DNA of 55,946 nt from Promethearchaeota archaeon (GTDB lineage Archaea > Asgardarchaeota > Lokiarchaeia > Sigyniarchaeales > SOKP01): the NCBI GenBank assembly GCA_016839585.1, contig JAEOTZ010000045.1, positions 1-55,946 on the forward strand, written 5' to 3'. Positions 249-39,544 of the stretch are shown here, piece after piece. The notes beneath the pieces were generated by a model. That model was not told where the DNA came from. It made no database searches and worked only from the letters and a program-made list of their open reading frames with translations. Both the position numbers and the translations under genes were made by a program. Each line of letters begins with the position of its first letter. The first letter of the stretch is position 1.

Positions 249-1091
249 ATGCGATTAAATACAATCATGGAAGAAGTTAATGAGAGCTCTGCTGTTGCTG
301 GGGAGATTATGACTCCTAACGTTATAATGCTTGATACTAACTCTACTTTTAAAGATGTAATAGAAAAATTGCATAAACATAATATATCGGCAGTTTTTAT
401 TGAAGACGTTGTTAAAGGCGAATATTTTATAATTACCAAGACTGATGTTATCAATTTCCTTAATACGGGAGGGGTGTTTGAGCAAAATCTTTCAGACATT
501 TCAGTCAAAGATATAATGCAAGGACCAGTAGATATGCTAGATATTGATATATCCATTGATACTATCATCAGATATATGATTGAACATAATTTCAAGCGAG
601 TTTTAATTTCAAAAGGTGATAAACCAGCAGGTGTTGTTTCTACTCGAGATATAATGACATGGAACAATACTTACTTTAAACCTGCTAAACCTCAAATTCT
701 AATTTTCATGGATAATATTAATAGTGCATTTATAGCAAAACACATCTATAGGGATAATATTGATGATGAAATAGACAAGGATTTAATTGACGTGTATGGA
801 GGGGCTTTAAGTTCTATTTCAGCGATAACAGATGAAGTCATCAAAAAGTCGGGAACTATGCGTCAATTGCTTAAAGATAAACGATCCATCCTTTTTGAAC
901 CACACAAGGGAATTACGGGGATATTAATCAGCGATTATAATTCCATTGAACTACGGCGCAAATTGCAGATTGCTACCAAAAAATTTTATGAAACACATTC
1001 AAACATCATCGATTCTAACTATAAAGAGGAGGAAGGAGTTAATAAAGATCTAAATATTGACCCTGTGGTTCCTATTTTCAAAGAAGATTAA
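249..1091 (+). CDS. Tandem CBS pair fused to a C-terminal longin-like domain
   Basis: CBS hallmarks (AGEIMT, HNISAVFI, IITKTDV, VKDIM, GVVSTRDI); C-terminal beta-beta-alpha-beta-beta-beta-alpha pattern with YGGALSSISAI like Asgard longins. Confidence 0.75.
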   Translation: MRLNTIMEEVNESSAVAGEIMTPNVIMLDTNSTFKDVIEKLHKHNISAVFIEDVVKGEYFIITKTDVINFLNTGGVFEQNLSDISVKDIMQGPVDMLDIDISIDTIIRYMIEHNFKRVLISKGDKPAGVVSTRDIMTWNNTYFKPAKPQILIFMDNINSAFIAKHIYRDNIDDEIDKDLIDVYGGALSSISAITDEVIKKSGTMRQLLKDKRSILFEPHKGITGILISDYNSIELRRKLQIATKKFYETHSNIIDSNYKEEEGVNKDLNIDPVVPIFKED

Positions 1092-1146: not shown

Positions 1147-2409
1147 CTAATTCTCAAAGCTTTTTATATTGGGTGAGACCATGCTTTTTCTACTATCGAA
1201 TCCAAACTTAAGAACCTTAAAACTCAATAAGAATGGGATTATGCTTAAAAAACTTAGTGTTAAACCGAACAATGTAGTATTTGAAAGTGAAAGTAAAATC
1301 CCCCCAATAATAGGTCCTAAAATTTGAGACATATTATCTAAAGAAGTACTTATTCCCATTATTTTACCCTGATTTCGAAAATCAACTGAACGACTAACAA
1401 ATCCAATAGTTATTCCTCTTGAAGTTGCTCCACTGAAACTTATATAAAAGAGTATTATAAGAAGTTGCCAAACTTCAAATACGAATCCTAAAAGAAAATA
1501 ACTTAATATATAGCTTCCAAGGCCTATCATCGCTGTTTTGGGATCACCGACATTATTTCTAATTCTATTAAAAAAGAAGGCTCTGAAAACAACTTGGAAG
1601 ATTCCCATGGCTGAAAGAAGTAATCCAATAGTTTGAGCATTTAAGCTTAGTCTAATATCACCAAAAAGACTAAAGGTGGTTTGAAAAACCCCAGCAGCAA
1701 CAGCTAGAAAGCTATATTGCAATAAAAGTGTAATAGTTTGCTTATTTTTCCAAATGGAAGGTGTAATTATCTCATTATTTTTATTAATGATTCTATTATG
1801 ACTTAAATCAGGATTTTTAACAATTTCAGTTAAATTATTTGTTTTAATAGGTAATGATTCTTTTAGATAAACTGCAGTGATAATAATCGTAAAACTTGCT
1901 AAAACACTTGATAAAATTCCAGGTCCCATAATACCAAATGCTGATAAAAATCCACCAGCAGCAGGTCCAACTAAAAATGCTAATGTGAATGCGATGCCAA
2001 TATTAGTCATTTGTTTAGGTCTTTCTTTTGGAGGTATAATATCACCTATAACTGCCCTGGAAATTGGGAATTGACCACCAAATATCCCATCGACTATTCG
2101 TGCAATAAAAAGCATTTGTATATTTCGTGAAAAAGTTAAAATTATAAACCCTGCTAAAGTTCCTACTTGTGATATTAATAATAAAGGCTTTCTACCATAC
2201 TTATCACTTAATTTCCCTAAGATTGGTCCGAAAAAGAATCCAAATATAGCATTAGAACTAAGTAATAGCCCAATAATTAAGGGAGAACTATTATATTCTT
2301 TCATAAAAAAGGGTAAATATGGTAATATAATACTAAAACCTAAAATATCAACAAATACAGCGACCCATAAAGGTGTTAATCTTGGGTATTGCATAAAACT
2401 CTTTTTCAT
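1147..2409 (-). CDS. MFS transporter, TetA/DHA1-like
   Basis: About 12 TM; motif A GKLSDKYGRKP, ARIVDG, motif C GPAAGG. Confidence 0.9.
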   Translation of the reverse strand: MKKSFMQYPRLTPLWVAVFVDILGFSIILPYLPFFMKEYNSSPLIIGLLLSSNAIFGFFFGPILGKLSDKYGRKPLLLISQVGTLAGFIILTFSRNIQMLFIARIVDGIFGGQFPISRAVIGDIIPPKERPKQMTNIGIAFTLAFLVGPAAGGFLSAFGIMGPGILSSVLASFTIIITAVYLKESLPIKTNNLTEIVKNPDLSHNRIINKNNEIITPSIWKNKQTITLLLQYSFLAVAAGVFQTTFSLFGDIRLSLNAQTIGLLLSAMGIFQVVFRAFFFNRIRNNVGDPKTAMIGLGSYILSYFLLGFVFEVWQLLIILFYISFSGATSRGITIGFVSRSVDFRNQGKIMGISTSLDNMSQILGPIIGGILLSLSNTTLFGLTLSFLSIIPFLLSFKVLKFGFDSRKSMVSPNIKSFEN

Positions 2410-3192: not shown

Positions 3193-3675
3193 TTGGTAAT
3201 AGAACTTATGTCATCTTTAAATAGAGAAAAATTGCATACAAACTGTAGAGAATCTTTAGAGAAAGACAAAGATTTCATTCCTCGGAAATATACACTCACT
3301 CATTCAGATTCCACAGGAGAATTATATTTGACAATAGATTGTGATTATGATTACAATCAGATCTCAGGATTTTATACTCGTTTTATGAGGGATGAGATTT
3401 TAGCAGAATGGCAAAGAATTGATGATAAGGAGGAATTGCATGTATATGCACATGTTAGTGGCGGGTTAGTTTTTGGATGGGCCGCATTAAGATATAGAAT
3501 TTTTAAACATCATATGCCAACGGTGCTACAAACTATTAGAGAGGGAGATACTCAATTGTTTGAGATTTTTCCAGTACTTGACAATGCTCCTATATTTGTG
3601 TATTTTTTATCAAAAAATAAAAAATATAATAAAATTGAAAATTATGGAACTTTAAAAGATTATAAGCTAAATTAA
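3193..3675 (+). CDS. Staygreen (SGR) family protein, Mg-dechelatase homologue; start possibly ATG at 3208
   Basis: PRKYTLTHSDSTGELYLTI, MRDEILAEW, LHVYAHVSG, RYRIF are Staygreen family motifs. Confidence 0.85.
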   Translation: MVIELMSSLNREKLHTNCRESLEKDKDFIPRKYTLTHSDSTGELYLTIDCDYDYNQISGFYTRFMRDEILAEWQRIDDKEELHVYAHVSGGLVFGWAALRYRIFKHHMPTVLQTIREGDTQLFEIFPVLDNAPIFVYFLSKNKKYNKIENYGTLKDYKLN

Positions 3676-3880: not shown

Positions 3881-4627
3881 ATGACAGTCATCACTTATAA
3901 AGTAGTTTTCGATGGTCGGATTGATGATAACTTAAAAAATGAGATTGACAACGGATTTTTAGAGGAAGTAATTGATGATGCACAAACTAAGGTAGTTATA
4001 GGAGTAGATTTTTATTCTAAAGATTTTAATCTATATGGTAAAGGGATAAGAGCTCAAGTTTGGATCTTAAGTCAAGATCAAATGTTTAAGACAATAAAGG
4101 CTATGTATTACAAGGGTGCGAATCTTGTTATATATGTGAAATCTGATAATTCATCTACTGTTGAAAAATTAATAGATTCTTTTAAAAATGCTAAGATTAA
4201 TCCAAATAATATAATTTTAATAGAGTCTACAGAAGATTTTACTGAAGCTTTTTTTGAATATGCAATTGTAATTACTTTGTATCATGATGGATTAATAAGT
4301 TCTAGTACGTTCAGAGAGAAAAAAGTTGTTTATGAGAAAGGGAATAACCCAAAATTTACAGTTTTAAGTGATTATTTAGAATCAGAGGAATATGAAATTA
4401 AAAATTTGAAAGATTTACTATTAAGAAAAGAGGAGGAAATTGAAGAATTAAGAAAGCTAGTTAAATTTAAAGATAAACAAATAAGCAATTTAAAAGATTC
4501 CCTCCAATCGAAAGATAAACTCATAAGATCACAAATTAACGAAATGAAAATTATTGCAAATTCTGTAAAGATTAAAGAAAAAGAACTTGAGGATCTACGA
4601 AAAGAATTAAAGCTTAAAAATAAGTAA
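3881..4627 (+). CDS. Degenerate Rab-like small-GTPase domain fused to a C-terminal coiled coil
   Basis: IGVDF, RAQVW, MFKTIK, YYKGA match RabF motifs; no GxxxxGK[ST], DxxG or NKxD; last ~80 aa are E/K/L heptads. Confidence 0.65.
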   Translation: MTVITYKVVFDGRIDDNLKNEIDNGFLEEVIDDAQTKVVIGVDFYSKDFNLYGKGIRAQVWILSQDQMFKTIKAMYYKGANLVIYVKSDNSSTVEKLIDSFKNAKINPNNIILIESTEDFTEAFFEYAIVITLYHDGLISSSTFREKKVVYEKGNNPKFTVLSDYLESEEYEIKNLKDLLLRKEEEIEELRKLVKFKDKQISNLKDSLQSKDKLIRSQINEMKIIANSVKIKEKELEDLRKELKLKNK

Positions 4628-4852: not shown

Positions 4853-5260
4853 ATGGAATTAAATGGTTATATAGAGGATCCAAAGGTTAATGATGAGGAT
4901 CTTGGGAAAAATTTAGAAGCGTTATTGCATATGTTTTTAATTAAAAATCCAAATATTAATGCCGCAGCAGTAATCACTACTGAGGGCCTCCCAATTATTT
5001 CTGCTATTTCTCATCGTTTAGATGAAACAAGAATCGCGGCCATGTCAGCTACACTACTTTCTTTGGCAGAAAGGGCTATAAAAGAAATGGAGAGAGGAGA
5101 TTTCAATGAACTTTTTATTAAGGGAACAGAAGGATACTTAATATTAGTACAGGCAGGACCTCATGCTGTTTTAATGCTTTCTACAAACATAGATGTTCAA
5201 CTTGGATTATTATTTTTTGAGTGTGAAAGAATATGCGAAAAGATTGCATTCCTAATATGA
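4853..5260 (+). CDS. Roadblock/LC7 (MglB-like) protein
   Basis: AAAVITTEGLPI, IAAMSATLLSLAERA, QLGLLF. Confidence 0.9.
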   Translation: MELNGYIEDPKVNDEDLGKNLEALLHMFLIKNPNINAAAVITTEGLPIISAISHRLDETRIAAMSATLLSLAERAIKEMERGDFNELFIKGTEGYLILVQAGPHAVLMLSTNIDVQLGLLFFECERICEKIAFLI

Positions 5261-8634: not shown

Positions 8635-10926
8635 TTATTCAACTGGTCGAAAAATTCCTTTTTTTATTAAAGAAAGAATTGCTTCATAATCTTTTGGAGT
8701 ACACACATTTTCCGGAAGTAAGTAAATAGCATAAAAGTAATTAAATTTATGTTGTTTCATAAAATCTAAAGCTCTTTTAATCATTTCTTTCTCATTTTGG
8801 TTTAGATCAGCTTTTTTAGGTATTACAATTTTTAATGGATAAAGGAGTGTAATATTCATATGCTTTTCCACTAAATTCTTTATTCCTCGAAATGGTTTAA
8901 GATTTCCATCAAATTGATCAATTAAGTTACCATAATTTTTGTATATATCATAAGCTAAAGACTCAATAGAGTATAAAAAGTTTTTAGAGGGATTTTCTTT
9001 CATTATTATGATTATTCTTAAATTTACAAACTCAACCATTAAAAGGATTGAGCCACGATACTCTAATTTAATTGTGCGTGAGTCTTTAGTTCCTTCTAAC
9101 ACTTCTGTTCCAAAATTATGCAATGCTTGTAGATATCCCGCAATTAATGTTAAATCAAATTCTTTTTCTTCAAATGACTCTGCGTATAAATCAATACCGG
9201 ATTTCTTATCAAGAACAATGATATATTTTAAATTCATAACATCTGTGCATTCTTCTAAGATTAGTTTTAATCTTTTTCTACCTTTTGTTTCGCGCTTTTT
9301 GAGGATTGTATAACCTATGAATCCCATAAAAGCAGCAGCAATTATAATAATGCCGATAATAAGAAATAGTGAAAAATCGGGGCTAGACCCAGTAGAAACT
9401 GGGACAGAAGTGATGGTAAATACTTGTGTTTGAACTCCTGCATCAGTTTGATTATTCCAATATAAATATGCAATATAGTTACCTTCTAAAATACCTGAAG
9501 GCAAATTATAAGAAAATACATTATTATCAGGTGGAATTGTCTTTTTTATTTCAAATTCAACAGAACCGAGAGGATCAATTAATTGAAATGTATAATTTCC
9601 AGGTAAAACAGGAGGACTAATTGAAAATACTAATTCTTCCCCAATTTCAAATTCAGTTGTAATAGTATTAATATTAAAGTTAATGTTTGGAGAATAAGCT
9701 TTTATTTCCCATTCTGCCCCATCTGAAATTATATTATGTGGTATACATAAGAGATTTTCTGTAGGGTTGATTGTTACATTGTTGGTTATATCTAACAAAT
9801 CTTTATAAATTGAAAAGTTCTTCCATTGTGAAGGATAGTAGAATTCTATTGAACAATTGCTTGAATATCGTGTAATGGAAGGTCTTACTATCCATTCATT
9901 AGTAGAATTAGCTTTAATTGTTACTGAAGCAGGGGATAAGAAAATATTATGCGTATTCAATAAATAATCTACATCGAAAATCAGAATTGCTGAATTATTG
10001 TTAAAAATAGGAAGGTTAATTTGTTCACTATTAGGAGAAAAAATTAGTGGAGTAAGGGGTAAATTACCAGATCCAATAGAAGGTCCATTTTGAATTTCAT
10101 AATACTCATTATCAATTTCAATAGTCATATTAATATCTTCTGGATAAACAGGAACTCCTGTTTCTCGAATTAATTTATATAAAAAGGGGGAATTTGATAT
10201 TCCCGTAGTCCAAATACCCTCTATAAATCGAGAGATTAATAAATTTGGATTTTTTGGATCAATATTGTTATAATACCAGTAATATTCATTATCGTTTACT
10301 GAAATAATATTCGAGCCATTTAAGACTAAAAAATAATCTCCTTTTGGTAATAATAATGGTGAGGGTGAAAGAAAGTCTTGCAAATACCATCCTTCTGCAT
10401 TTGACATATTGATATCCATAGTCAAATATATAGTATTATTAGGGATCTCGTTTGCTGTATCATATCCTCTTATTTGAACTTGAATAACTTTAGGAGAGGG
10501 GGTATTTTCTCTCCTTCCATATAGGTATATTCCATGCAGTGTCTCGGATTCATTTAAATGTAATTGTACTGCTAATCCTTGCTCTCTATCATTAACATTT
10601 TGGTAATAAATCGTATGATAAATTCCCGAATAACTTTTATTTTCGATATTTTCTATCTCTGTGCCTAGATTTTTTATATTTGTGAAATTTAGTTCAATAT
10701 TTTCTATGTTCCATGAAGAAGATGGCAATTCAATGTCAATTGAATCCACATTATTATGAAAACCCTGATTAATTGAATTTTCAACCATTTCGAAATTCAA
10801 GTTAATATTAAGAGAATGTTCACTACCATTTGACGAAACAACATCTAAATTCTGAAATAATACGGTAAATAAACTTAATAAGATTACAAAAATAAATCCT
10901 CTTTTTAATAAATTTAATGTCTTCAT
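8635..10926 (-). CDS. Single-pass receptor-like protein with cytoplasmic longin-like domain (dispersed copy D)
   Basis: N-terminal hydrophobic segment; many NxS/T sequons; TM FLIIGIIIIAAAFMGFIGY; YIIVLDKKSGIDLY...LIAGYLQALHNFG; collinear with the three ORFs at 32419-39544. Confidence 0.8.
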   Translation of the reverse strand: MKTLNLLKRGFIFVILLSLFTVLFQNLDVVSSNGSEHSLNINLNFEMVENSINQGFHNNVDSIDIELPSSSWNIENIELNFTNIKNLGTEIENIENKSYSGIYHTIYYQNVNDREQGLAVQLHLNESETLHGIYLYGRRENTPSPKVIQVQIRGYDTANEIPNNTIYLTMDINMSNAEGWYLQDFLSPSPLLLPKGDYFLVLNGSNIISVNDNEYYWYYNNIDPKNPNLLISRFIEGIWTTGISNSPFLYKLIRETGVPVYPEDINMTIEIDNEYYEIQNGPSIGSGNLPLTPLIFSPNSEQINLPIFNNNSAILIFDVDYLLNTHNIFLSPASVTIKANSTNEWIVRPSITRYSSNCSIEFYYPSQWKNFSIYKDLLDITNNVTINPTENLLCIPHNIISDGAEWEIKAYSPNINFNINTITTEFEIGEELVFSISPPVLPGNYTFQLIDPLGSVEFEIKKTIPPDNNVFSYNLPSGILEGNYIAYLYWNNQTDAGVQTQVFTITSVPVSTGSSPDFSLFLIIGIIIIAAAFMGFIGYTILKKRETKGRKRLKLILEECTDVMNLKYIIVLDKKSGIDLYAESFEEKEFDLTLIAGYLQALHNFGTEVLEGTKDSRTIKLEYRGSILLMVEFVNLRIIIIMKENPSKNFLYSIESLAYDIYKNYGNLIDQFDGNLKPFRGIKNLVEKHMNITLLYPLKIVIPKKADLNQNEKEMIKRALDFMKQHKFNYFYAIYLLPENVCTPKDYEAILSLIKKGIFRPVE

Positions 10927-22391: not shown

Positions 22392-23237
22392 ATGATCATT
22401 TGGATATTAGATTCCGAATCTGGAACAAAATTATTATATAAATCATTTTTGAAAACGAGTGCTGATGAGGATATTGTTTCTGGTTTTTTAACAGCGTTTC
22501 ATCATTTTTCTATGGTTGAATTTAAGCAATCATTAGAATCTATAGAAATGGGTGGATTAAGATGGAGTTATATATTAGAGCCAGAGTATCAATTACTTTT
22601 TGTGGCAGCAGACACCAAAAGTGTAAGAACTGAAATGCTAATGGGGAGATTAAATGTTATAAAAGAAGCATTCGTAAAGGAATTTAAATCCGCATGGGAA
22701 AAAAAAGGTCATACCTGGAATGGAAATATTAATATCTTTTTACCTTTTCTTGATGTAATTGAGGACTATTACAATCAATGGGAAGAGGTTGAAACTTTAA
22801 CACATGTTGCAGATTTTTTTGATATCTTGGGTGTTTTTCAGCACATATTAATTTCAATTAGAAATTTTATAGATCATAAAATGTATAGTAAATCCAAAAC
22901 TGAAATTTTAAAGCTCATCGATAAATCATATAATACTATTAAAAATCAAGCAAAATACAAAAATCATCCAGAATTGAAAAATATCTCCTATTCTAAAGAG
23001 GCTTGGTTTAATATTATTGATATAAACCTTATTAAGGGTGAAAAAAAATTAGTTATTAGGTATTTAAAATCAATTCTTAGACAAATTGTAAATATTTTGA
23101 AGGAAGTAAAAGGAGAGAATTTATGTTTAAGATATTTTAGCGAAGAACATATTTATGCTTATATTTACAATAATATGAAATTATTAAAAGATTTAAAATT
23201 AGATATGTTTTTCTTAGAACTTTTTCTATTATTATAA
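22392..23237 (+). CDS. Soluble protein with N-terminal longin-like domain and helical C-terminus
   Basis: IWILDSESGTKLLY...IVSGFLTAFHHFS...SIEMGG...LLFVAAD...IKEAFVKEF...WNGNINIF. Confidence 0.7.
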   Translation: MIIWILDSESGTKLLYKSFLKTSADEDIVSGFLTAFHHFSMVEFKQSLESIEMGGLRWSYILEPEYQLLFVAADTKSVRTEMLMGRLNVIKEAFVKEFKSAWEKKGHTWNGNINIFLPFLDVIEDYYNQWEEVETLTHVADFFDILGVFQHILISIRNFIDHKMYSKSKTEILKLIDKSYNTIKNQAKYKNHPELKNISYSKEAWFNIIDINLIKGEKKLVIRYLKSILRQIVNILKEVKGENLCLRYFSEEHIYAYIYNNMKLLKDLKLDMFFLELFLLL

Positions 23238-32418: not shown

Positions 32419-34692
32419 TTATAATTTAGGTTGAAAGACTTTTTTCTTTATCAAATTAAGGATTATTTCGGCCTCTTTTGCATCAAAATCCTTTCTTATT
32501 GATAAGAGACTAGTTACAGTAAAATAATCCTTGTTTTTCTTTCTCATAATCACTTTAGCGCGATTTACCATGGATTTTTCATCAGACTTAAGTTTTATAT
32601 CTAGTTTAATTATTTCTAATGGATATATCAACGCTGTTTGTAAATGTTGTTCAAGTAATTCACCAATATCTTTAAAAGGGATTAAATTTCCATTAAAACT
32701 TTCAATTATATCACCATATCTTTTATCAATATCATAAGATAACGCTTTGATAGATTCTAAGAAGTCCTGGGAAGGTTTTTCTTTCATAATAAGCAAAATT
32801 CTAAAACTCTTAAATTCTGACATTAAGATTTTTGAATCTTGATATTCCAATTTTATTGTCTGAGATTGTTCACCAGCTCCAGTTAATTCAATACCAAAAC
32901 TACGAATTGCTTCAAGAAATCCTGCAACTAATGAAGCATCAATGGATTTGCCAGCTAAAATTTGTTCGTACAAATTTAACCCAGACTTTTTATGTGTAAT
33001 AATAAAATAATCTAAATTTAATACATCCATATATTTATTAAATATGCTCTGTCTGTATGCCTCGTGTTTTCTCTTAGTATTTTTAACAAGTTTATATGTG
33101 GTAAAACTAGCAATTGACAAAAGAGCTATAGAAGACACTATTATAACAATTAGCATGGGATCTAATACAAAAGGGACAGTAATTTCAAATTCTTGGGTAA
33201 TAACTCCTGCATCTGTAGCGTTATTCCAGAAAATATAAGCCTTATAAGTTCCCTCATTGGGATTAGATGGAAGTTGATAAGTAAGTAAGAGATCCTCTGT
33301 TCCGATTGACTCTATAACATAAATTACATCTGATTGAGCTGGATAAGCTAATGAATTAATTAACCTAAAAGTAATATTTCCCGGAGGAATTGGAGAAAGA
33401 ATAGAAAATTGTATTTCTTGACCCGCGCTAAACTTTGTTTTTTGTACATTTAAAGGAAGTTGTATATTTGGAGAATTTGCTGTTATTTTCCAATCTGCAC
33501 CCTCTATTATTGTATTATTTGGAAGTAATATAAAATAATTTATTGGATCTTTTATGATATCTATTGTAATATTCTCCCATCCAAATCCTATATCTCTATA
33601 TATAGTTAAATTATACCAACTGTTTGGATATATAAATTTAATCGAATAATTAGAATAACATCTATCGAAATTTTGAGTCATTGTCCAAGTATTTTTCAAA
33701 TTCTCTTTAATTGATAATTCCCACACTGTATCAAGAATATTTTGAAGTTTGATATGATAACTTAAATTGAATAATAACTCAGGGACACGATTATTTACTA
33801 TTGGTATATTATATATTTCAGATAAAGGGGAAATATCTTTACTAATATTTAATTGACCAGTTCCAGGTTCTGTTCCATTTAAGATGGGATAATTAATACC
33901 ATCAATAATTGCACTCATATTAATTTCCTCCGGATCAAAAGATTCATTTACTCTTTGAATTAATTTATATAATAAAGGTTCTCCAGTAGCTTCTAAGTTC
34001 CATTTTGCGCCATCATGTTTTGATGTATTCAGATTATTAATAGAGCCACTATCATTAAAAAACCAATCATAAGCTGTTTTATCTATGGGAATATTCATTT
34101 CTGTTCCATTCATTACCAGATAATATTGGCCAATTGAAAGTGGTATTGGGTTTTCGAAGGTTTGGATATACCAATCAAAATTATTAGTCATATTTATTGG
34201 TACTGCTCCATAAATATTATCATCTGGTATGCCTTCTGCGCCATTATACCCGTGTATTTGTATGTAGGTCGGAATTGATGGAGCGCCACCGCTACGAACT
34301 CCATATATATATACTCCAAAAATTTCCGTCGGTACAGTAATATTAATTTGAACACCATATCCGGGATCACCTTTATAACCTACTGTTTTGCTATCCTCTC
34401 CCTCTTCTTCAATTGTTATAATTTCTTTTCCTAATTTTATATCAGTAAAATTCATTTCAATATTTGTTATATTCCATGAAGCAGATGGTAATGGAATATC
34501 TATTGAACTTATACTATTACTTGTATTTATGTTATCTGCAAATTCAAGCATCTGGAAATTTGAATTGATTTCAAGGGTTTCATCATTATACTGAGCATTA
34601 GCAAAATTAGCACTATATATTAAACTTAGTAATAAAAGTGTTATGAAAGTGAAGCCTATTATAAAATTTCTTGATTTATATGCCTTTTCCAA
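32419..34692 (-). CDS. Single-pass receptor-like protein with cytoplasmic longin-like domain (array copy A)
   Basis: Signal peptide ...NFANAQ; sequon-rich ectodomain; TM; YFIITHKKSGLNLY...LVAGFLEAIRSFG. Confidence 0.8.
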   Translation of the reverse strand: MEKAYKSRNFIIGFTFITLLLLSLIYSANFANAQYNDETLEINSNFQMLEFADNINTSNSISSIDIPLPSASWNITNIEMNFTDIKLGKEIITIEEEGEDSKTVGYKGDPGYGVQINITVPTEIFGVYIYGVRSGGAPSIPTYIQIHGYNGAEGIPDDNIYGAVPINMTNNFDWYIQTFENPIPLSIGQYYLVMNGTEMNIPIDKTAYDWFFNDSGSINNLNTSKHDGAKWNLEATGEPLLYKLIQRVNESFDPEEINMSAIIDGINYPILNGTEPGTGQLNISKDISPLSEIYNIPIVNNRVPELLFNLSYHIKLQNILDTVWELSIKENLKNTWTMTQNFDRCYSNYSIKFIYPNSWYNLTIYRDIGFGWENITIDIIKDPINYFILLPNNTIIEGADWKITANSPNIQLPLNVQKTKFSAGQEIQFSILSPIPPGNITFRLINSLAYPAQSDVIYVIESIGTEDLLLTYQLPSNPNEGTYKAYIFWNNATDAGVITQEFEITVPFVLDPMLIVIIVSSIALLSIASFTTYKLVKNTKRKHEAYRQSIFNKYMDVLNLDYFIITHKKSGLNLYEQILAGKSIDASLVAGFLEAIRSFGIELTGAGEQSQTIKLEYQDSKILMSEFKSFRILLIMKEKPSQDFLESIKALSYDIDKRYGDIIESFNGNLIPFKDIGELLEQHLQTALIYPLEIIKLDIKLKSDEKSMVNRAKVIMRKKNKDYFTVTSLLSIRKDFDAKEAEIILNLIKKKVFQPKL

Positions 34693-34840: not shown

Positions 34841-37120
34841 CTAAATTGCTACTTGAAAAATATTTTTCTCTATTAATTTAAGAATGATTTCAATATCTTT
34901 AGGGCTACAAGTTTTTTCGGGTATCAAATCTTTAAGATAAAAGAATTTAGTACCATTTTTATTCATAATTGATATCGCAGTATTTATAACAGACTTTTCA
35001 GAGGGGTAAATTCTAATTTTTTCTAATTTATCTATATTAACAAGTTTTAGAGGATATAAAATTGAAACATTTAGGTGCTTTATAAGTAAATCCTCAATAC
35101 CCTTAAATTGCCGAACATCTCCATTAAATTGATCAATCATATTCCCGTAATTCTTATAAGTATCATAAGCTAGATCTTCAAGGGAATAGAGCAAGTATTT
35201 TGATGGACTTTCTTTCATTATTAAGATTAATCTAATATTTATGAATTCACTCACTAGTACAATTGAATCTTTATATTCTAATTTTATAGTTTGAGATTGA
35301 TTTTCAACTTTCATTAGTTCAATTCCAAATGAAGAAATGGCTTGCAAAAATCCAGAAATCAATGTACCATTTAATTCTTTAATAGCAAATTTTTGTTCAT
35401 AAATGCTTAATCCAGAATTCTTATTTGTCACAATAAGATAATCAAGGTTCATAATGTCCATACATTTACTAAAGATTTTCTGCTCTTCCTCAATTTTTCT
35501 GGTTCGAATCTTTTTAATTGTTCTGTATGATATAATACTAAATGCTGATAATCCTAGTGCAAGTAGGACAATTCCAAAAATAGTTAGTGGATCTAAGGTG
35601 AATGGGACTGATTGAACTATTATTTGGAATTTTTGAGTAATTACACCTGCATCCGTAGCATTATTCCAAAAAACATAAGCCTTATAATTTCCCTCATGGG
35701 GATTAGATGGAAGTGTATAATTTAGTTTAAGATCCTCTGTTTCGATTGAATCTATTACATAAGTTTCATCTGGCTGAGCTGGATACCCAAAAGTATTAAT
35801 TAACCTAAAAGTAATATTTCCTGGAGGAATTGGAGGCAGAACAGAAAATTGTATTTCTTGACCCGGGTTAAACTTTTCTTTTTGTACATCGTAAGGAAGT
35901 TGAATATTTGGAGAATTTGCTGTGATTTCCCAATCTATATCCTCTATTATTGTATTATTTGGAAGAAATATAAAATGATTTATTGGATCTTTTATAATAT
36001 CACTTGTAATATTTTCCCATCCAATTCCACTGTTTCTATATATAGTTATATTATACCAACTGTTTGGATAAATAAATTTAATAGAATAATTACAATAATA
36101 CCGTGAAATTTCAGGATTTAAAGTCCAAAGATTGGCAGGATTCTCTTGAATGAATACAAAACCTTCGGTATTTAAGAAATTTTGTAATTTAATATGAAAA
36201 CTTAGATCAAATAATAATTCAATTGATCGATTATTATAGATTGGTATATTAAAAACATCACTATTGGGAGAGATATTTTTATTCACAATAATACTTCCAT
36301 TTCCACTAATTGAAAATAACGATCTATCAATATCTAATGTCATATTTATTTCTTCAGGATTAAATGATCTATCTACTCTTTGGAATAGTTTATATAGAAG
36401 AGGTTTACCTACATCTTCTTCAGACCATACCCCGCCATCATAAAATGCTGTATGTAAATTGGTGTTTATAGATCCACTACCGTTAAATAACCAATTGTAA
36501 TCTGATTTGTCAGTAGGAAAAGTTAATTCTGATCCGTTAATTACTAAATAATAGTTTCCTGGAGAGAGTGGGACTTCATATTCAAAAATTTGTTGATGCC
36601 ATCCTGGAGTAGAAATATTTATTACGGTATTTCCTAGAATATTTTCATCTGGAGAATTGGTTGAAATATTATATCCTTGTATTTGAACATATACTGGTTG
36701 ACGTGGAGTCCCAGTTATATAGCCATAGATATAAACACCAAATAGTATAGTAGGCTCAATAATATTGATTTCAACACCATATCCTAATTTACCCCTTGAA
36801 TCTATTCTATGAATATTTTGACCGCTTTCTTCAACTGTTTTTATTTCTTTACCTAATTTTACATCTGTAAAATTCATTTCAATATTTGTTATATTCCATG
36901 AAACAGATGGTAATGAAATATCTATTGAACTTATTCCATTACTCGTATTTATGTTATCTGCAAATTCAAGCATCGGGAAATTTGAATGGGTTTCAAGGAT
37001 TTCATCATTATTCTGAGCATTAGCAAAATTAGTACTATATATTAAACTTAGTAATAAAAGTGTCATAAAAGTGATTCCTATTATAAAATTTCCTGATTTA
37101 TATACCTTTTTCAAATACAA
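34841..37120 (-). CDS. Single-pass receptor-like protein with longin-like domain (array copy B, chimeric; start likely TTG at 37114)
   Basis: N-terminus and membrane-proximal ectodomain match A; TM and cytoplasmic tail match C. Confidence 0.85.
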   Translation of the reverse strand: MYLKKVYKSGNFIIGITFMTLLLLSLIYSTNFANAQNNDEILETHSNFPMLEFADNINTSNGISSIDISLPSVSWNITNIEMNFTDVKLGKEIKTVEESGQNIHRIDSRGKLGYGVEINIIEPTILFGVYIYGYITGTPRQPVYVQIQGYNISTNSPDENILGNTVINISTPGWHQQIFEYEVPLSPGNYYLVINGSELTFPTDKSDYNWLFNGSGSINTNLHTAFYDGGVWSEEDVGKPLLYKLFQRVDRSFNPEEINMTLDIDRSLFSISGNGSIIVNKNISPNSDVFNIPIYNNRSIELLFDLSFHIKLQNFLNTEGFVFIQENPANLWTLNPEISRYYCNYSIKFIYPNSWYNITIYRNSGIGWENITSDIIKDPINHFIFLPNNTIIEDIDWEITANSPNIQLPYDVQKEKFNPGQEIQFSVLPPIPPGNITFRLINTFGYPAQPDETYVIDSIETEDLKLNYTLPSNPHEGNYKAYVFWNNATDAGVITQKFQIIVQSVPFTLDPLTIFGIVLLALGLSAFSIISYRTIKKIRTRKIEEEQKIFSKCMDIMNLDYLIVTNKNSGLSIYEQKFAIKELNGTLISGFLQAISSFGIELMKVENQSQTIKLEYKDSIVLVSEFINIRLILIMKESPSKYLLYSLEDLAYDTYKNYGNMIDQFNGDVRQFKGIEDLLIKHLNVSILYPLKLVNIDKLEKIRIYPSEKSVINTAISIMNKNGTKFFYLKDLIPEKTCSPKDIEIILKLIEKNIFQVAI

Positions 37121-37264: not shown

Positions 37265-39544
37265 TTAAACAGCAGCTTGAAAAATATTTTTCTCTATTAA
37301 TTTAAGAATAAGTTCAATATCTTTAGGGCTGCAAGTTTTTTCAATTATTAAATCTTTAATATAAAAAAAATCAGTAGTATCTTTATTCATAATTGATATT
37401 GCATCATTAATAAAAGACTTCTCAGTAGGGCTAACTCTAATATTCTCTAATTTATCTATATCAACAAGTCTTAGAGGATATACAATTGCAATATTTAGGT
37501 GCTTTATTAGTAAATTCTCTATACCTTTAAATTTTCTAACATCTCCATCAAACTGATCAATTAAATTCCCATAATTCTTATAGATATCATAAGCTAAATC
37601 TTCAAGTGAATAGAGTAAGTATTTTGATGGACTTTCTTTCATTATTAAAATTAATCTAACATTTACAAATTCACTCATTAATACAATTGAATCCTTATAT
37701 TCTAATTTTATAGTTTGAGATTGATTTTCAACTTTCATTAGTTCAATTCCAAAAGAAGAAAGGGCTTGCAAAAATCCAGAAATCAATGTACCATTTAATT
37801 GTTTACTTGTAAATTTTTGTTCATAAACACTTAATCCAGATATCTTATTTGTTACAATAAGATAATCAAGGTTCATAATATCCATACATTTACTGAAGAT
37901 TTTCTGCTTTTCCTCAATTTTTCTGGTTCGAACCTTTTTAATTGTTCTGTATGATATAATACTAAATGCTGCAAATACTACTACAAGTAGGACAATTCCA
38001 AAAATAGTTAATGGATCTAAGGTGAATGGGACTGATGGAACTATTATTTGGAATTCTTGAGATTGAACTCCTGCATCTGTTTCATCATTCCAATAAATCT
38101 CTATAGTGTATTCTCCTTCACGGAAACTTGATGGTATTACAAATGAAAATAAAATTTCGTCTGAAGTCACTTCTCTATTTAATTCAATAATCTCGATAAA
38201 ATTTCCTGGTTTTATTAAAATAAATGTAAGATTGCCTTGTATTATTGGAACTTCAACTGAAAATTGTAGGTCTTGTTCTGGTTTATATTCAGAAAATAAT
38301 CCTTTTATCTCGAAATCAATATTCGGTGAATTTGCTGTGATTTTCCAGTCTGCACCCTCTATAATTATGTCGTTTGGAAGAAGTATAAAATGATTTAATG
38401 AGTCTATTATAATATATGATGTAATATTTTCCCAATCAGTTCCAATATCTCTATATATAGTTAAATTTTGCCAACTTCCAGAGTATTCATATTTAACTGA
38501 ATAATTAGATGAGAACCTAGAAAATTCCGGATAAATATTCCATTCATTATTAGAATCTGTAATTAATACAGATCCTTCTGAAAGAAAGGAGTTTCTTAAA
38601 TTAATGCTATAATTAACGTTAAAGGCTAAATCAGATATTAAATTATTTTTAATTGGAATAGAGATAACGTCAGTATTCAGAGAATAATTAAGATTTAAAT
38701 TTAGGTATCCTATTCCAGAACTACTGCCATTTAAAATAGGATAATAACTCTCATCTAGTTCAGCAGACATATTAATTTCTTCTGGAAAAACTTCTTTTGT
38801 AATTCTTTGATCTAGTTTATAGAGAAGCGTTTCATTAGTTATACCATTTACCCAATCCGCTTCATATCCCCATGAAAATAGATTTGGGTTATTTGGATTT
38901 TCATCATTCATTTCCCAATAATACCTTGCACTATCAGAGGGACCCATTTCTGAACCATTCATAATTAAGTAGTAATATCCTTTCGTAAGATGTACAGTAG
39001 AATTAAAAGTTTGGGAGTACCATTTTGTTTCACTTGACATATTTAATGCAACAGATCTATAAACAGTTTCATTTGGTTTGTTTGTAGGATTATCATAACC
39101 ATTTATTTGAACAGTTATAATAGTTGTTGTGGCTGGTCTAGATTCATATCCATAAATTTGGACTCCAAAAACATCAGTAGGTTCTGTAATATTAATTTGT
39201 ACGGCATATGCTTTATCTCCTTTATCTAATTCTCTCGAATGACCAATTATATTACTTTCTACTTCTTTTATCTCCCGCTTAAATTCAATATTCGTAAAAT
39301 TTAATTCAATATCTGTTAAATCCCATTTAGATGAGTTTAACGGAATCTCTATTAAACTAACATTATTAATATTTTCTTCAAGATTTGCATATTCAGTCAT
39401 TTCAAAATTAAGATTAATCGGAGGAGATTCGCCATTAATTTGAGCAGTGGTAAAATTTATAAAATTATTTAAAATAAAGAGAAAACAAAATAAAACTAAT
39501 AAGATCCAGATAAAATTCTTCGCTTTTGAAGTAACCTTTGTCAT
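37265..39544 (-). CDS. Single-pass receptor-like protein with longin-like domain (array copy C)
   Basis: Same architecture; YLIVTNKISGLSVY...LISGFLQALSSFG. Confidence 0.8.
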   Translation of the reverse strand: MTKVTSKAKNFIWILLVLFCFLFILNNFINFTTAQINGESPPINLNFEMTEYANLEENINNVSLIEIPLNSSKWDLTDIELNFTNIEFKREIKEVESNIIGHSRELDKGDKAYAVQINITEPTDVFGVQIYGYESRPATTTIITVQINGYDNPTNKPNETVYRSVALNMSSETKWYSQTFNSTVHLTKGYYYLIMNGSEMGPSDSARYYWEMNDENPNNPNLFSWGYEADWVNGITNETLLYKLDQRITKEVFPEEINMSAELDESYYPILNGSSSGIGYLNLNLNYSLNTDVISIPIKNNLISDLAFNVNYSINLRNSFLSEGSVLITDSNNEWNIYPEFSRFSSNYSVKYEYSGSWQNLTIYRDIGTDWENITSYIIIDSLNHFILLPNDIIIEGADWKITANSPNIDFEIKGLFSEYKPEQDLQFSVEVPIIQGNLTFILIKPGNFIEIIELNREVTSDEILFSFVIPSSFREGEYTIEIYWNDETDAGVQSQEFQIIVPSVPFTLDPLTIFGIVLLVVVFAAFSIISYRTIKKVRTRKIEEKQKIFSKCMDIMNLDYLIVTNKISGLSVYEQKFTSKQLNGTLISGFLQALSSFGIELMKVENQSQTIKLEYKDSIVLMSEFVNVRLILIMKESPSKYLLYSLEDLAYDIYKNYGNLIDQFDGDVRKFKGIENLLIKHLNIAIVYPLRLVDIDKLENIRVSPTEKSFINDAISIMNKDTTDFFYIKDLIIEKTCSPKDIELILKLIEKNIFQAAV

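Follow-up and report, generated by a model that had tools for sequence, protein, structure and literature searches.

A CBS pair joined to a longin-like domain in Loki-type Asgard archaea: a candidate ligand-gated signaling adaptor

Longin and roadblock platforms, together with small GTPases, are eukaryotic signature systems of Asgard archaea. To our knowledge, almost nothing is known about the inputs that these platforms and GTPases receive, and the locus described here raises the question of whether one protein combines a small-molecule sensor with a longin platform. The locus lies on a contig from a Promethearchaeota archaeon (GenBank assembly GCA_016839585.1, contig JAEOTZ010000045.1), analyzed over its 55,946 nucleotides, a stretch referred to below as the window. 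A preliminary description had proposed a fusion of a CBS pair (Bateman module) with a longin-like domain, and a possible adenylate sensor wired to GTPase regulation. Rapid in vitro ligand screening is possible for only a handful of sensor modules, CBS pairs among them, which makes the fusion a practical experimental starting point for the study of Asgard longin signaling.

The gene is an intact open reading frame (ORF) of 280 amino acids plus stop in a window with a G+C content of 29% (Table 1). Because most homologs in the alignment begin at the position of M7, the alternative ATG at that codon may be the real start. The gene is divergent from a minus-strand gene with a start codon at about 101 to 103 and convergent with a gene for a major facilitator superfamily (MFS) transporter (1147-2409, minus strand). 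Two minus-strand ORFs, at 197-667 and 255-485, overlap it in antisense and are taken to be by-products of A+T-rich sequence. No sign was found that the fusion is an artifact of annotation or assembly, or a decaying gene: the antisense ORFs notwithstanding, the conserved plus-strand gene explains the whole 843-base region. The 77 homologs of the same length lie on independent contigs, including two complete chromosomes of Lokiarchaeum ossiferum, and conservation extends through both domains and the connector between them. Because of these conservation data, an artifactual or decaying gene can be considered already refuted, and we give it next to no chance.

Table 1. Positions of the CBS-longin gene, its parts, and other genes that encode the same longin-like domain. 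Plain positions are those of the window; prefixed positions are those of the locus named.
Feature	Position	Strand	Basis or remark
CBS-longin ORF	249..1091	+	Alternative start ATG at 267 (M7)
CBS motif 1 (aa ~17-72)	297..464	+	Pfam CBS; AF2 secondary structure; M21-T22-P23 invariant; S/T63-x-x-D66 motif
CBS motif 2 with closing helix (aa ~84-142)	498..674	+	Pfam best stretch 86-137; AF2; G92-P93, K116-R117, G128, and S131 invariant
Inter-domain connector WNNTYFKPAKPQ (aa 138-149)	660..695	+	Most conserved stretch (0.87); residues 139-145 in predicted dimer interface
Longin-fold domain (aa ~148-277)	690..1079	+	AF2 topology; Foldseek; VIA-align; ESM Atlas; final short helix with invariant F277
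Longin helix α1 and strand β3 (aa 177-212; YGGALSSISAITDEV...G202)	777..884	+	Highly conserved; low monomer pLDDT; predicted longin-longin interface
Single-pass receptors of ~760 aa with longin-like cytoplasmic tail	8635-10926, 32419-34692, 34841-37120, 37265-39544	-	All four among the 30 domain matches in the window's genome
Domain after MFS transporter (585 aa)	L012:1627-3381	-	Other Asgard genome
Domain after Fer4 and FrhB/FdhB redox protein (540 aa)	L014:739-2358	+	Other Asgard genome
Domain after TPR (~680-700 aa)	L015:1263-3353; L019:1784-3820	-	Other Asgard genomes
Longin and GTPase fusion (299 aa)	L023:448-1344 (G000:C90, window's genome)	-	Longin-like domain 3-119 (hhalign 96%, E 4e-9); Arf/Roc/Ras-type GTPase 131-263

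The full-length homologs form 77 clusters of the same length, with E values from 1e-41 to 1e-165, which places the fusion far beyond chance. By their source names, all come from Loki-type Asgard archaea, including NEF87_003456 of L. ossiferum, an ortholog in a cultured organism that makes pull-downs feasible. The longin domain (mean column identity 0.66) is as conserved as the CBS pair (0.63), and the connector is more so (0.87); selection acts on the whole protein. When the C-terminal domain alone was compared with 1.84 billion cluster representatives, 35 clusters matched. Pfam CBS was detected in 9 of 10 divergent clusters scanned (8 of them above the cut-off), with no match in the remaining one. 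At that level of similarity the C-terminal domain is, as far as these sequence matches indicate, found only after a CBS pair, that is, as a dedicated fusion. A survey of 301 Asgard genomes, in which strong orthologs were defined by an E value below 1e-20, detected them in 17 of the 76 genomes of the window's order and in 4 of the 22 genomes of its own genus (counted from the match table), and none in about 225 Asgard genomes outside that order. The gene is lineage-restricted and patchy, and given this patchiness the protein looks dispensable.

The N-terminal half is readily identified. Pfam CBS (PF00571) matches two stretches with an E value of 1.1e-14 and 54.9 bits (cut-off, 24). The AF2 monomer model of the whole protein (pLDDT 79, pTM 0.55) places the two domains at residues ~17-142 and ~148-277, within a few residues of the boundaries proposed initially (15-140 and 148-280); at this pTM, the modeled orientation of the domains relative to each other is uncertain. 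Searched with Foldseek, the whole model retrieves solved CBS pairs, for example, ST2348 (2ef7_B; TM score by target 0.86, rmsd 2.4 Å) and MJ0100 (3kpc; TM score 0.84), and a family profile search matches solved CBS proteins that include MJ1225, CBS-CP12, and AMPK gamma. By sequence, the best matches of the CBS half are PDB 9znf, 9zng, and 9zni (chains 4-7), which belong to one recent large assembly; these chains are several "CBS domain-containing proteins" of ~270-340 amino acids, without a match to the longin half.

One of the two clefts of the CBS pair is strictly conserved among 33 diverse family members: T22 and S131 are present in all 33 and D134 in 32, and the cleft is flanked by the basic residues K116 and R117 (33/33 each) and R/K133 (31/33). 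The second cleft is looser, with S/T63 in 33/33 and D66 in 30/33, and with position 91, the counterpart of T22, variable. A Thr/Thr/Asp ribose-binding triad and a ligand-driven flattening of the CBS module have been described for CNNM/CorC (PMC6429129). Because the canonical ribose-binding residues T22, S131, and D134 are kept, an adenosyl, probably phosphorylated, ligand is plausible, as had been suggested, and the sequence does not discriminate which one. The latter point is compatible with a CBS pair that is not an adenylate energy-charge sensor: its ligand could be SAM/MTA, NAD, a cyclic dinucleotide, or Mg2+, or the pair could function mainly as a dimerization scaffold. The same ribose motif occurs in SAM/MTA-binding CBS pairs such as MJ0100, which is among the structural matches; NCBIfam detects a weak, far sub-threshold similarity of the protein to the c-di-AMP-binding CbpB; and strict conservation is confined to one of the two clefts. 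The invariant K116 and R117 and the R/K133 beside the conserved cleft would, however, fit a phosphate-bearing ligand, and a role other than adenylate sensing appears improbable to us.

The comparison with AMPK gamma that was drawn at the outset is loose. Adenine-nucleotide-type CBS motifs are common to both proteins (profile E value of about 2e-6), and both suggest an energy sensor that feeds a signaling complex. However, AMPK gamma has four CBS repeats, which form two Bateman modules, and belongs to an alpha/beta/gamma kinase complex, whereas the Asgard protein has two CBS motifs in a single Bateman module and no evident kinase partner.

The identity of the C-terminal half had to be established from predicted structure. 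Neither Pfam nor NCBIfam assigns a family to it, and this protein matches no Pfam longin model. A sequence search of the PDB with the C-terminal domain yielded nothing significant; the best match, a segment of the RGD1 F-BAR (E 0.011), was taken as spurious. In both AF2 models, DSSP assigns the order β(148-155)-β(161-166)-α(177-199)-β(205-207)-β(212-219)-β(222-228)-α(233-249)-α(251-259). According to a published topology rule, longins have the order β-β-α-β-β-β-α-α, without an N-terminal helix and with extra C-terminal helices (PMC10933270); because the predicted topology matches this rule, the C-terminal half has the longin and not the roadblock order. Folded alone, the domain reaches a pLDDT of 76 and a pTM of 0.74, and its Foldseek matches are nearly all longins, with modest E values: the best is Sec22b (1ifq; TM scores 0.64/0.70, E 1.5e-3), and others are Ykt6, VAMP7, Mon1-Ccz1, AP sigma, zeta-COP, TRAPP, and the Lokiarchaeal longin 8yqg. 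An exhaustive VIA-align search ranks Sec22b first (Z 12.3 over 117 residues at 2.4 Å), with VAMP7 at 12.2, synbindin at 11.9, sedlin at 10.8, and Ykt6 at 10.0, and each of its top twelve rows, at Z 9.3-12.3, is a protein or subunit with a longin fold. Likewise, a shape search of the ESM Atlas retrieves eukaryotic Longin and Sybindin clusters (TM scores 0.68-0.73), and the feature search in the same resource retrieves only unnamed archaeal clusters with scores below 0.9.

Two other small α/β folds were considered and rejected. The first roadblock in the VIA-align search is MglC at Z 9.0, followed by MglB at 8.9, and roadblocks align only up to residue ~111-117 of the 141-residue domain, short of the C-terminal helices that longins cover. 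Together with the different topology, which in roadblocks is α-β-β-α-β-β-β, and the absence of any match to Robl_LC7 (PF03259) at E values up to 10, this speaks against a roadblock; the same model matches the nearby gene 4853-5260 at 5e-15. An ACT domain of the AcuB type, with the order β-α-β-β-α-β, also differs in topology, and none is present among the 50 entries listed in each of the Foldseek and VIA-align searches of the domain alone. Thus, the C-terminal half is, on the predicted structure, a longin fold, as the preliminary description had proposed, and the outcome that would have spoken against that proposal, a fold other than longin or roadblock, did not arise.

The closest counterparts in shape are eukaryotic. 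Sec22b, VAMP7, Ykt6, synbindin/TRAPPC4, and sedlin/TRAPPC2 have the same topology and superpose over the whole domain, with Z scores of 10-12.3, 113-127 aligned residues, and an rmsd of 2.4-4.1 Å. The sequence identity to these proteins is, however, only 6-10%, and the Asgard protein has no SNARE motif, transmembrane segment, or TRAPP context; conversely, the CBS-pair fusion that it represents was found in no eukaryotic longin protein. Within Asgard archaea, longin domains occur in dozens of copies that are shuffled onto GTPases and prokaryotic signaling (two-component) domains (Tran et al. 2024, PMC10933270; Liu et al. 2020 preprint, doi 10.1101/2020.10.19.343400). The proteins in these surveys share taxon, fold, and the theme of expansion and shuffling with the one described here, and the Lokiarchaeal Roadblock-Longin protein (PDB 8yqg) has the same fold as its C-terminal half (Z 8.2). 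In the main texts of both surveys, "CBS" has 0 occurrences and is not mentioned as a fused sensor, and a CBS-plus-longin architecture was likewise not found for Asgard archaea in the literature searched. The expansion and shuffling of Asgard longins, including fusions to GTPases and two-component domains, are already known, and the combination with a CBS pair may be listed in the supplementary tables of these surveys.

Prediction of two copies of the protein yielded a median ipSAE of 0.52 over three runs, compared with a highest value of 0.00 among three controls. Of the solved structures used for calibration, 20 of 30 homodimers and 1 of 23 monomers attained the ipSAE mark. At least 76% of the contacts are shared among the runs, and the pLDDT of the partner is at least 70. 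The predicted interface consists of head-to-head CBS contacts (64:64 and 132:132), the connector (139-145), and longin α1/β3 (190-214, with 207:207). Roadblock and longin platforms dimerize by pairing of an edge strand and the central helix. Residues 188-209 form a highly conserved segment that is modeled with low confidence in the monomer and corresponds to the longin part of the predicted interface, a combination that fits ordering of this segment on dimerization. The success of the homodimer prediction may partly reflect memory of the many solved CBS dimers. On the models, the protein is probably homodimeric, with a predicted interface that combines a head-to-head CBS disc and a canonical longin α1/β3 contact.

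These elements can be combined into a mechanism. The protein would be a soluble, probably homodimeric signaling adaptor that consists of a Bateman module, a conserved connector, and a longin domain, is gated by a ligand, and likely acts on a GTPase, longin, or roadblock partner; we see an even chance that this reading is correct. A small molecule, with an adenosyl compound as the likeliest candidate, would bind in the T22/S131/D134 cleft with its basic flank and reshape the head-to-head CBS disc, as ligands do in other CBS proteins (CNNM, MgtE). The conserved connector would relay the change in the disc to the longin dimer and so alter its α1/β3 platform, the surface with which dimers of longins and roadblocks hold a partner. 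Analogy with these dimers, together with the GTPase fusion of a paralogous domain in the same genome, suggests small GTPases and other longin or roadblock proteins as the most likely partner class.

The whole-model structure search draws attention to a different class of proteins. Its top Foldseek matches, with E values of about 1e-9, are AcuB (a CBS pair plus an ACT domain; PDB 9s4v and 9s52, among others, with AMP/ADP/ATP) and CBS-CP12 (5nmu), although at an rmsd of 12-14 Å only the CBS part superposes. Both are soluble, are of similar size, carry a Bateman module followed by a small effector module, and provide precedents for nucleotide-loaded CBS pairs that control a partner-binding tail; they differ from the Asgard protein in their ACT or CP12 module in place of a longin fold, in taxon, and in gene context. 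By this precedent, the longin-like domain could be a second regulatory or oligomerization module, one that docks onto a metabolic enzyme or a transporter or that has a small-molecule ligand of its own, which would make the protein a nucleotide-dependent enzyme regulator similar to AcuB or CBS-CP12. Longin, GAF, PAS, and profilin folds are built on a common core, and small-ligand binding is known for some of them, which is compatible with such a role, as are the absence of a conserved GTPase neighbor and the presence of the same domain at the ends of MFS, FrhB/Fer4, and TPR proteins, which would suit a general regulatory or adaptor module. However, longins clearly outscore other folds when the domain is searched by itself (Z of 12, compared with about 9 for roadblocks), the platform dimer predicted for it is the canonical one, one of its paralogs is part of a small-GTPase fusion, and no enzyme that could serve as a partner recurs in the vicinity; the MFS genes next to three homologs are not orthologous. 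An enzyme regulator of this kind is possible but, in our judgment, rather unlikely.

The reach of the domain beyond the CBS fusion bears on the ligand-gated adaptor as well. In the survey of 301 genomes, weaker matches (E 1e-7 to 1e-14) fall at the C termini of longer proteins. Twelve of these sequences were fetched and align across the whole domain with the pattern L.SGAL.AIS....E ... IL.E ... G.LI....S..LR..L..F...F..Y ... F. Several architectures are represented (Table 1), along with several unannotated proteins of 356-424 amino acids and a 741-amino-acid ORF of the window's genome with several hydrophobic stretches. A broader, cross-architecture profile yields 30 matches in the window's own genome. 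Among these are the soluble protein encoded at 22392-23237 (hhalign 85%) and the four receptors of the window; for the 759-amino-acid receptor, hhalign aligns the domain profile with the tail at a probability of 95.4% (E 1.7e-8). The early suggestion that the CBS-longin protein is an internal counterpart to the membrane receptors is borne out to the extent that the same domain forms the tails of all four.

A word-index search extends the domain to hypothetical proteins of 290-450 amino acids in Heimdall- and Hod-archaea that lack a Pfam annotation. No Pfam model covers this longin subfamily. Sub-threshold matches to longin models occur in 5 of 17 family members (Sybindin at 2.1e-4, Fuz_longin_1 at 3.7e-3, and Intu_longin_1, the last in 3/17), and no other Pfam family is matched by more than one of the 17. 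The longin-like domain behaves, as judged from these alignments, as a promiscuous C-terminal module of a large Asgard paralogous family. This wider result may outweigh the single gene: an unannotated longin subfamily ends receptors, MFS transporters, FrhB-type redox enzymes, TPR proteins, and a CBS sensor and is also present in a GTPase.

The GTPase just mentioned is a 299-amino-acid protein of the window's genome in which the longin-like domain precedes an Arf/Roc-like GTPase (Table 1). A longin-GTPase architecture has been described for Asgard archaea (PMC10933270). Another member of the domain family is encoded 150 bp downstream of a Ras-family gene. The proposed link to GTPases accordingly has a footing at the level of the family, through one paralogous fusion, and is not supported by the gene context of this particular copy. 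No neighboring gene is common to the eight homolog neighborhoods, and none of the eight contains a GTPase or roadblock gene. Genome-wide, 9 of the 30 domain matches lie within 5 kb of one of the 76 Ras/Arf/Rag-type matches, compared with 5.4 expected, a proximity that is not significant (P = 0.08). Elsewhere in the genome (G000:C89), a Ras-family GTPase gene (L024:550-1119, plus strand) is located ~100 bp upstream of a gene for an 871-amino-acid protein (L024:1221-3836, plus strand) with spermine-synthase-like, weak Arf-like, and CN-hydrolase matches and a longin-like domain.

A stronger version of the adaptor reading can be formulated, in which the protein is a one-polypeptide archaeal analog of a eukaryotic nutrient switch. 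The adenylate-loaded CBS disc would gate the longin-dimer platform, which in turn would serve one of the archaeon's ~76 small GTPases as GEF, GAP, or scaffold, and the same module on receptors, transporters, and redox enzymes would be a common "plug" into GTPase signaling. We regard this version as a distinctly long shot.

Several other genes lie in the immediate surroundings of the CBS-longin gene. At 3881-4627 (plus strand), the window encodes a domain that resembles Ras/Roc at weak profile scores (E 2e-5) and is fused to a coiled coil on its C-terminal side, and a canonical Roadblock/LC7 gene follows at 4853-5260 (plus strand). Linkage of these two genes to the CBS-longin gene was rejected: they lie 2.8-3.8 kb downstream, separated from it by two unrelated genes and by the MFS gene on the other strand, and the eight homolog contexts examined contain no Ras-family or Roadblock gene that would correspond to them. 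An MFS gene adjoins the CBS-longin gene in the window and at the homologous loci L005/L006 and is near it in L. ossiferum. Because the neighboring MFS proteins are ~20% identical or unalignable, and not orthologous, the transporter was rejected as a partner and the adjacency is treated as coincidence. Finally, a homolog of Staygreen (Mg-dechelatase family) is encoded near the CBS-longin gene in the window (3193-3675, plus strand), at L005:4397-4861, and at L006:1694-2158, on the contig of a 78%-identical relative; this proximity, which carries no sign of a functional link, is taken as residual synteny.
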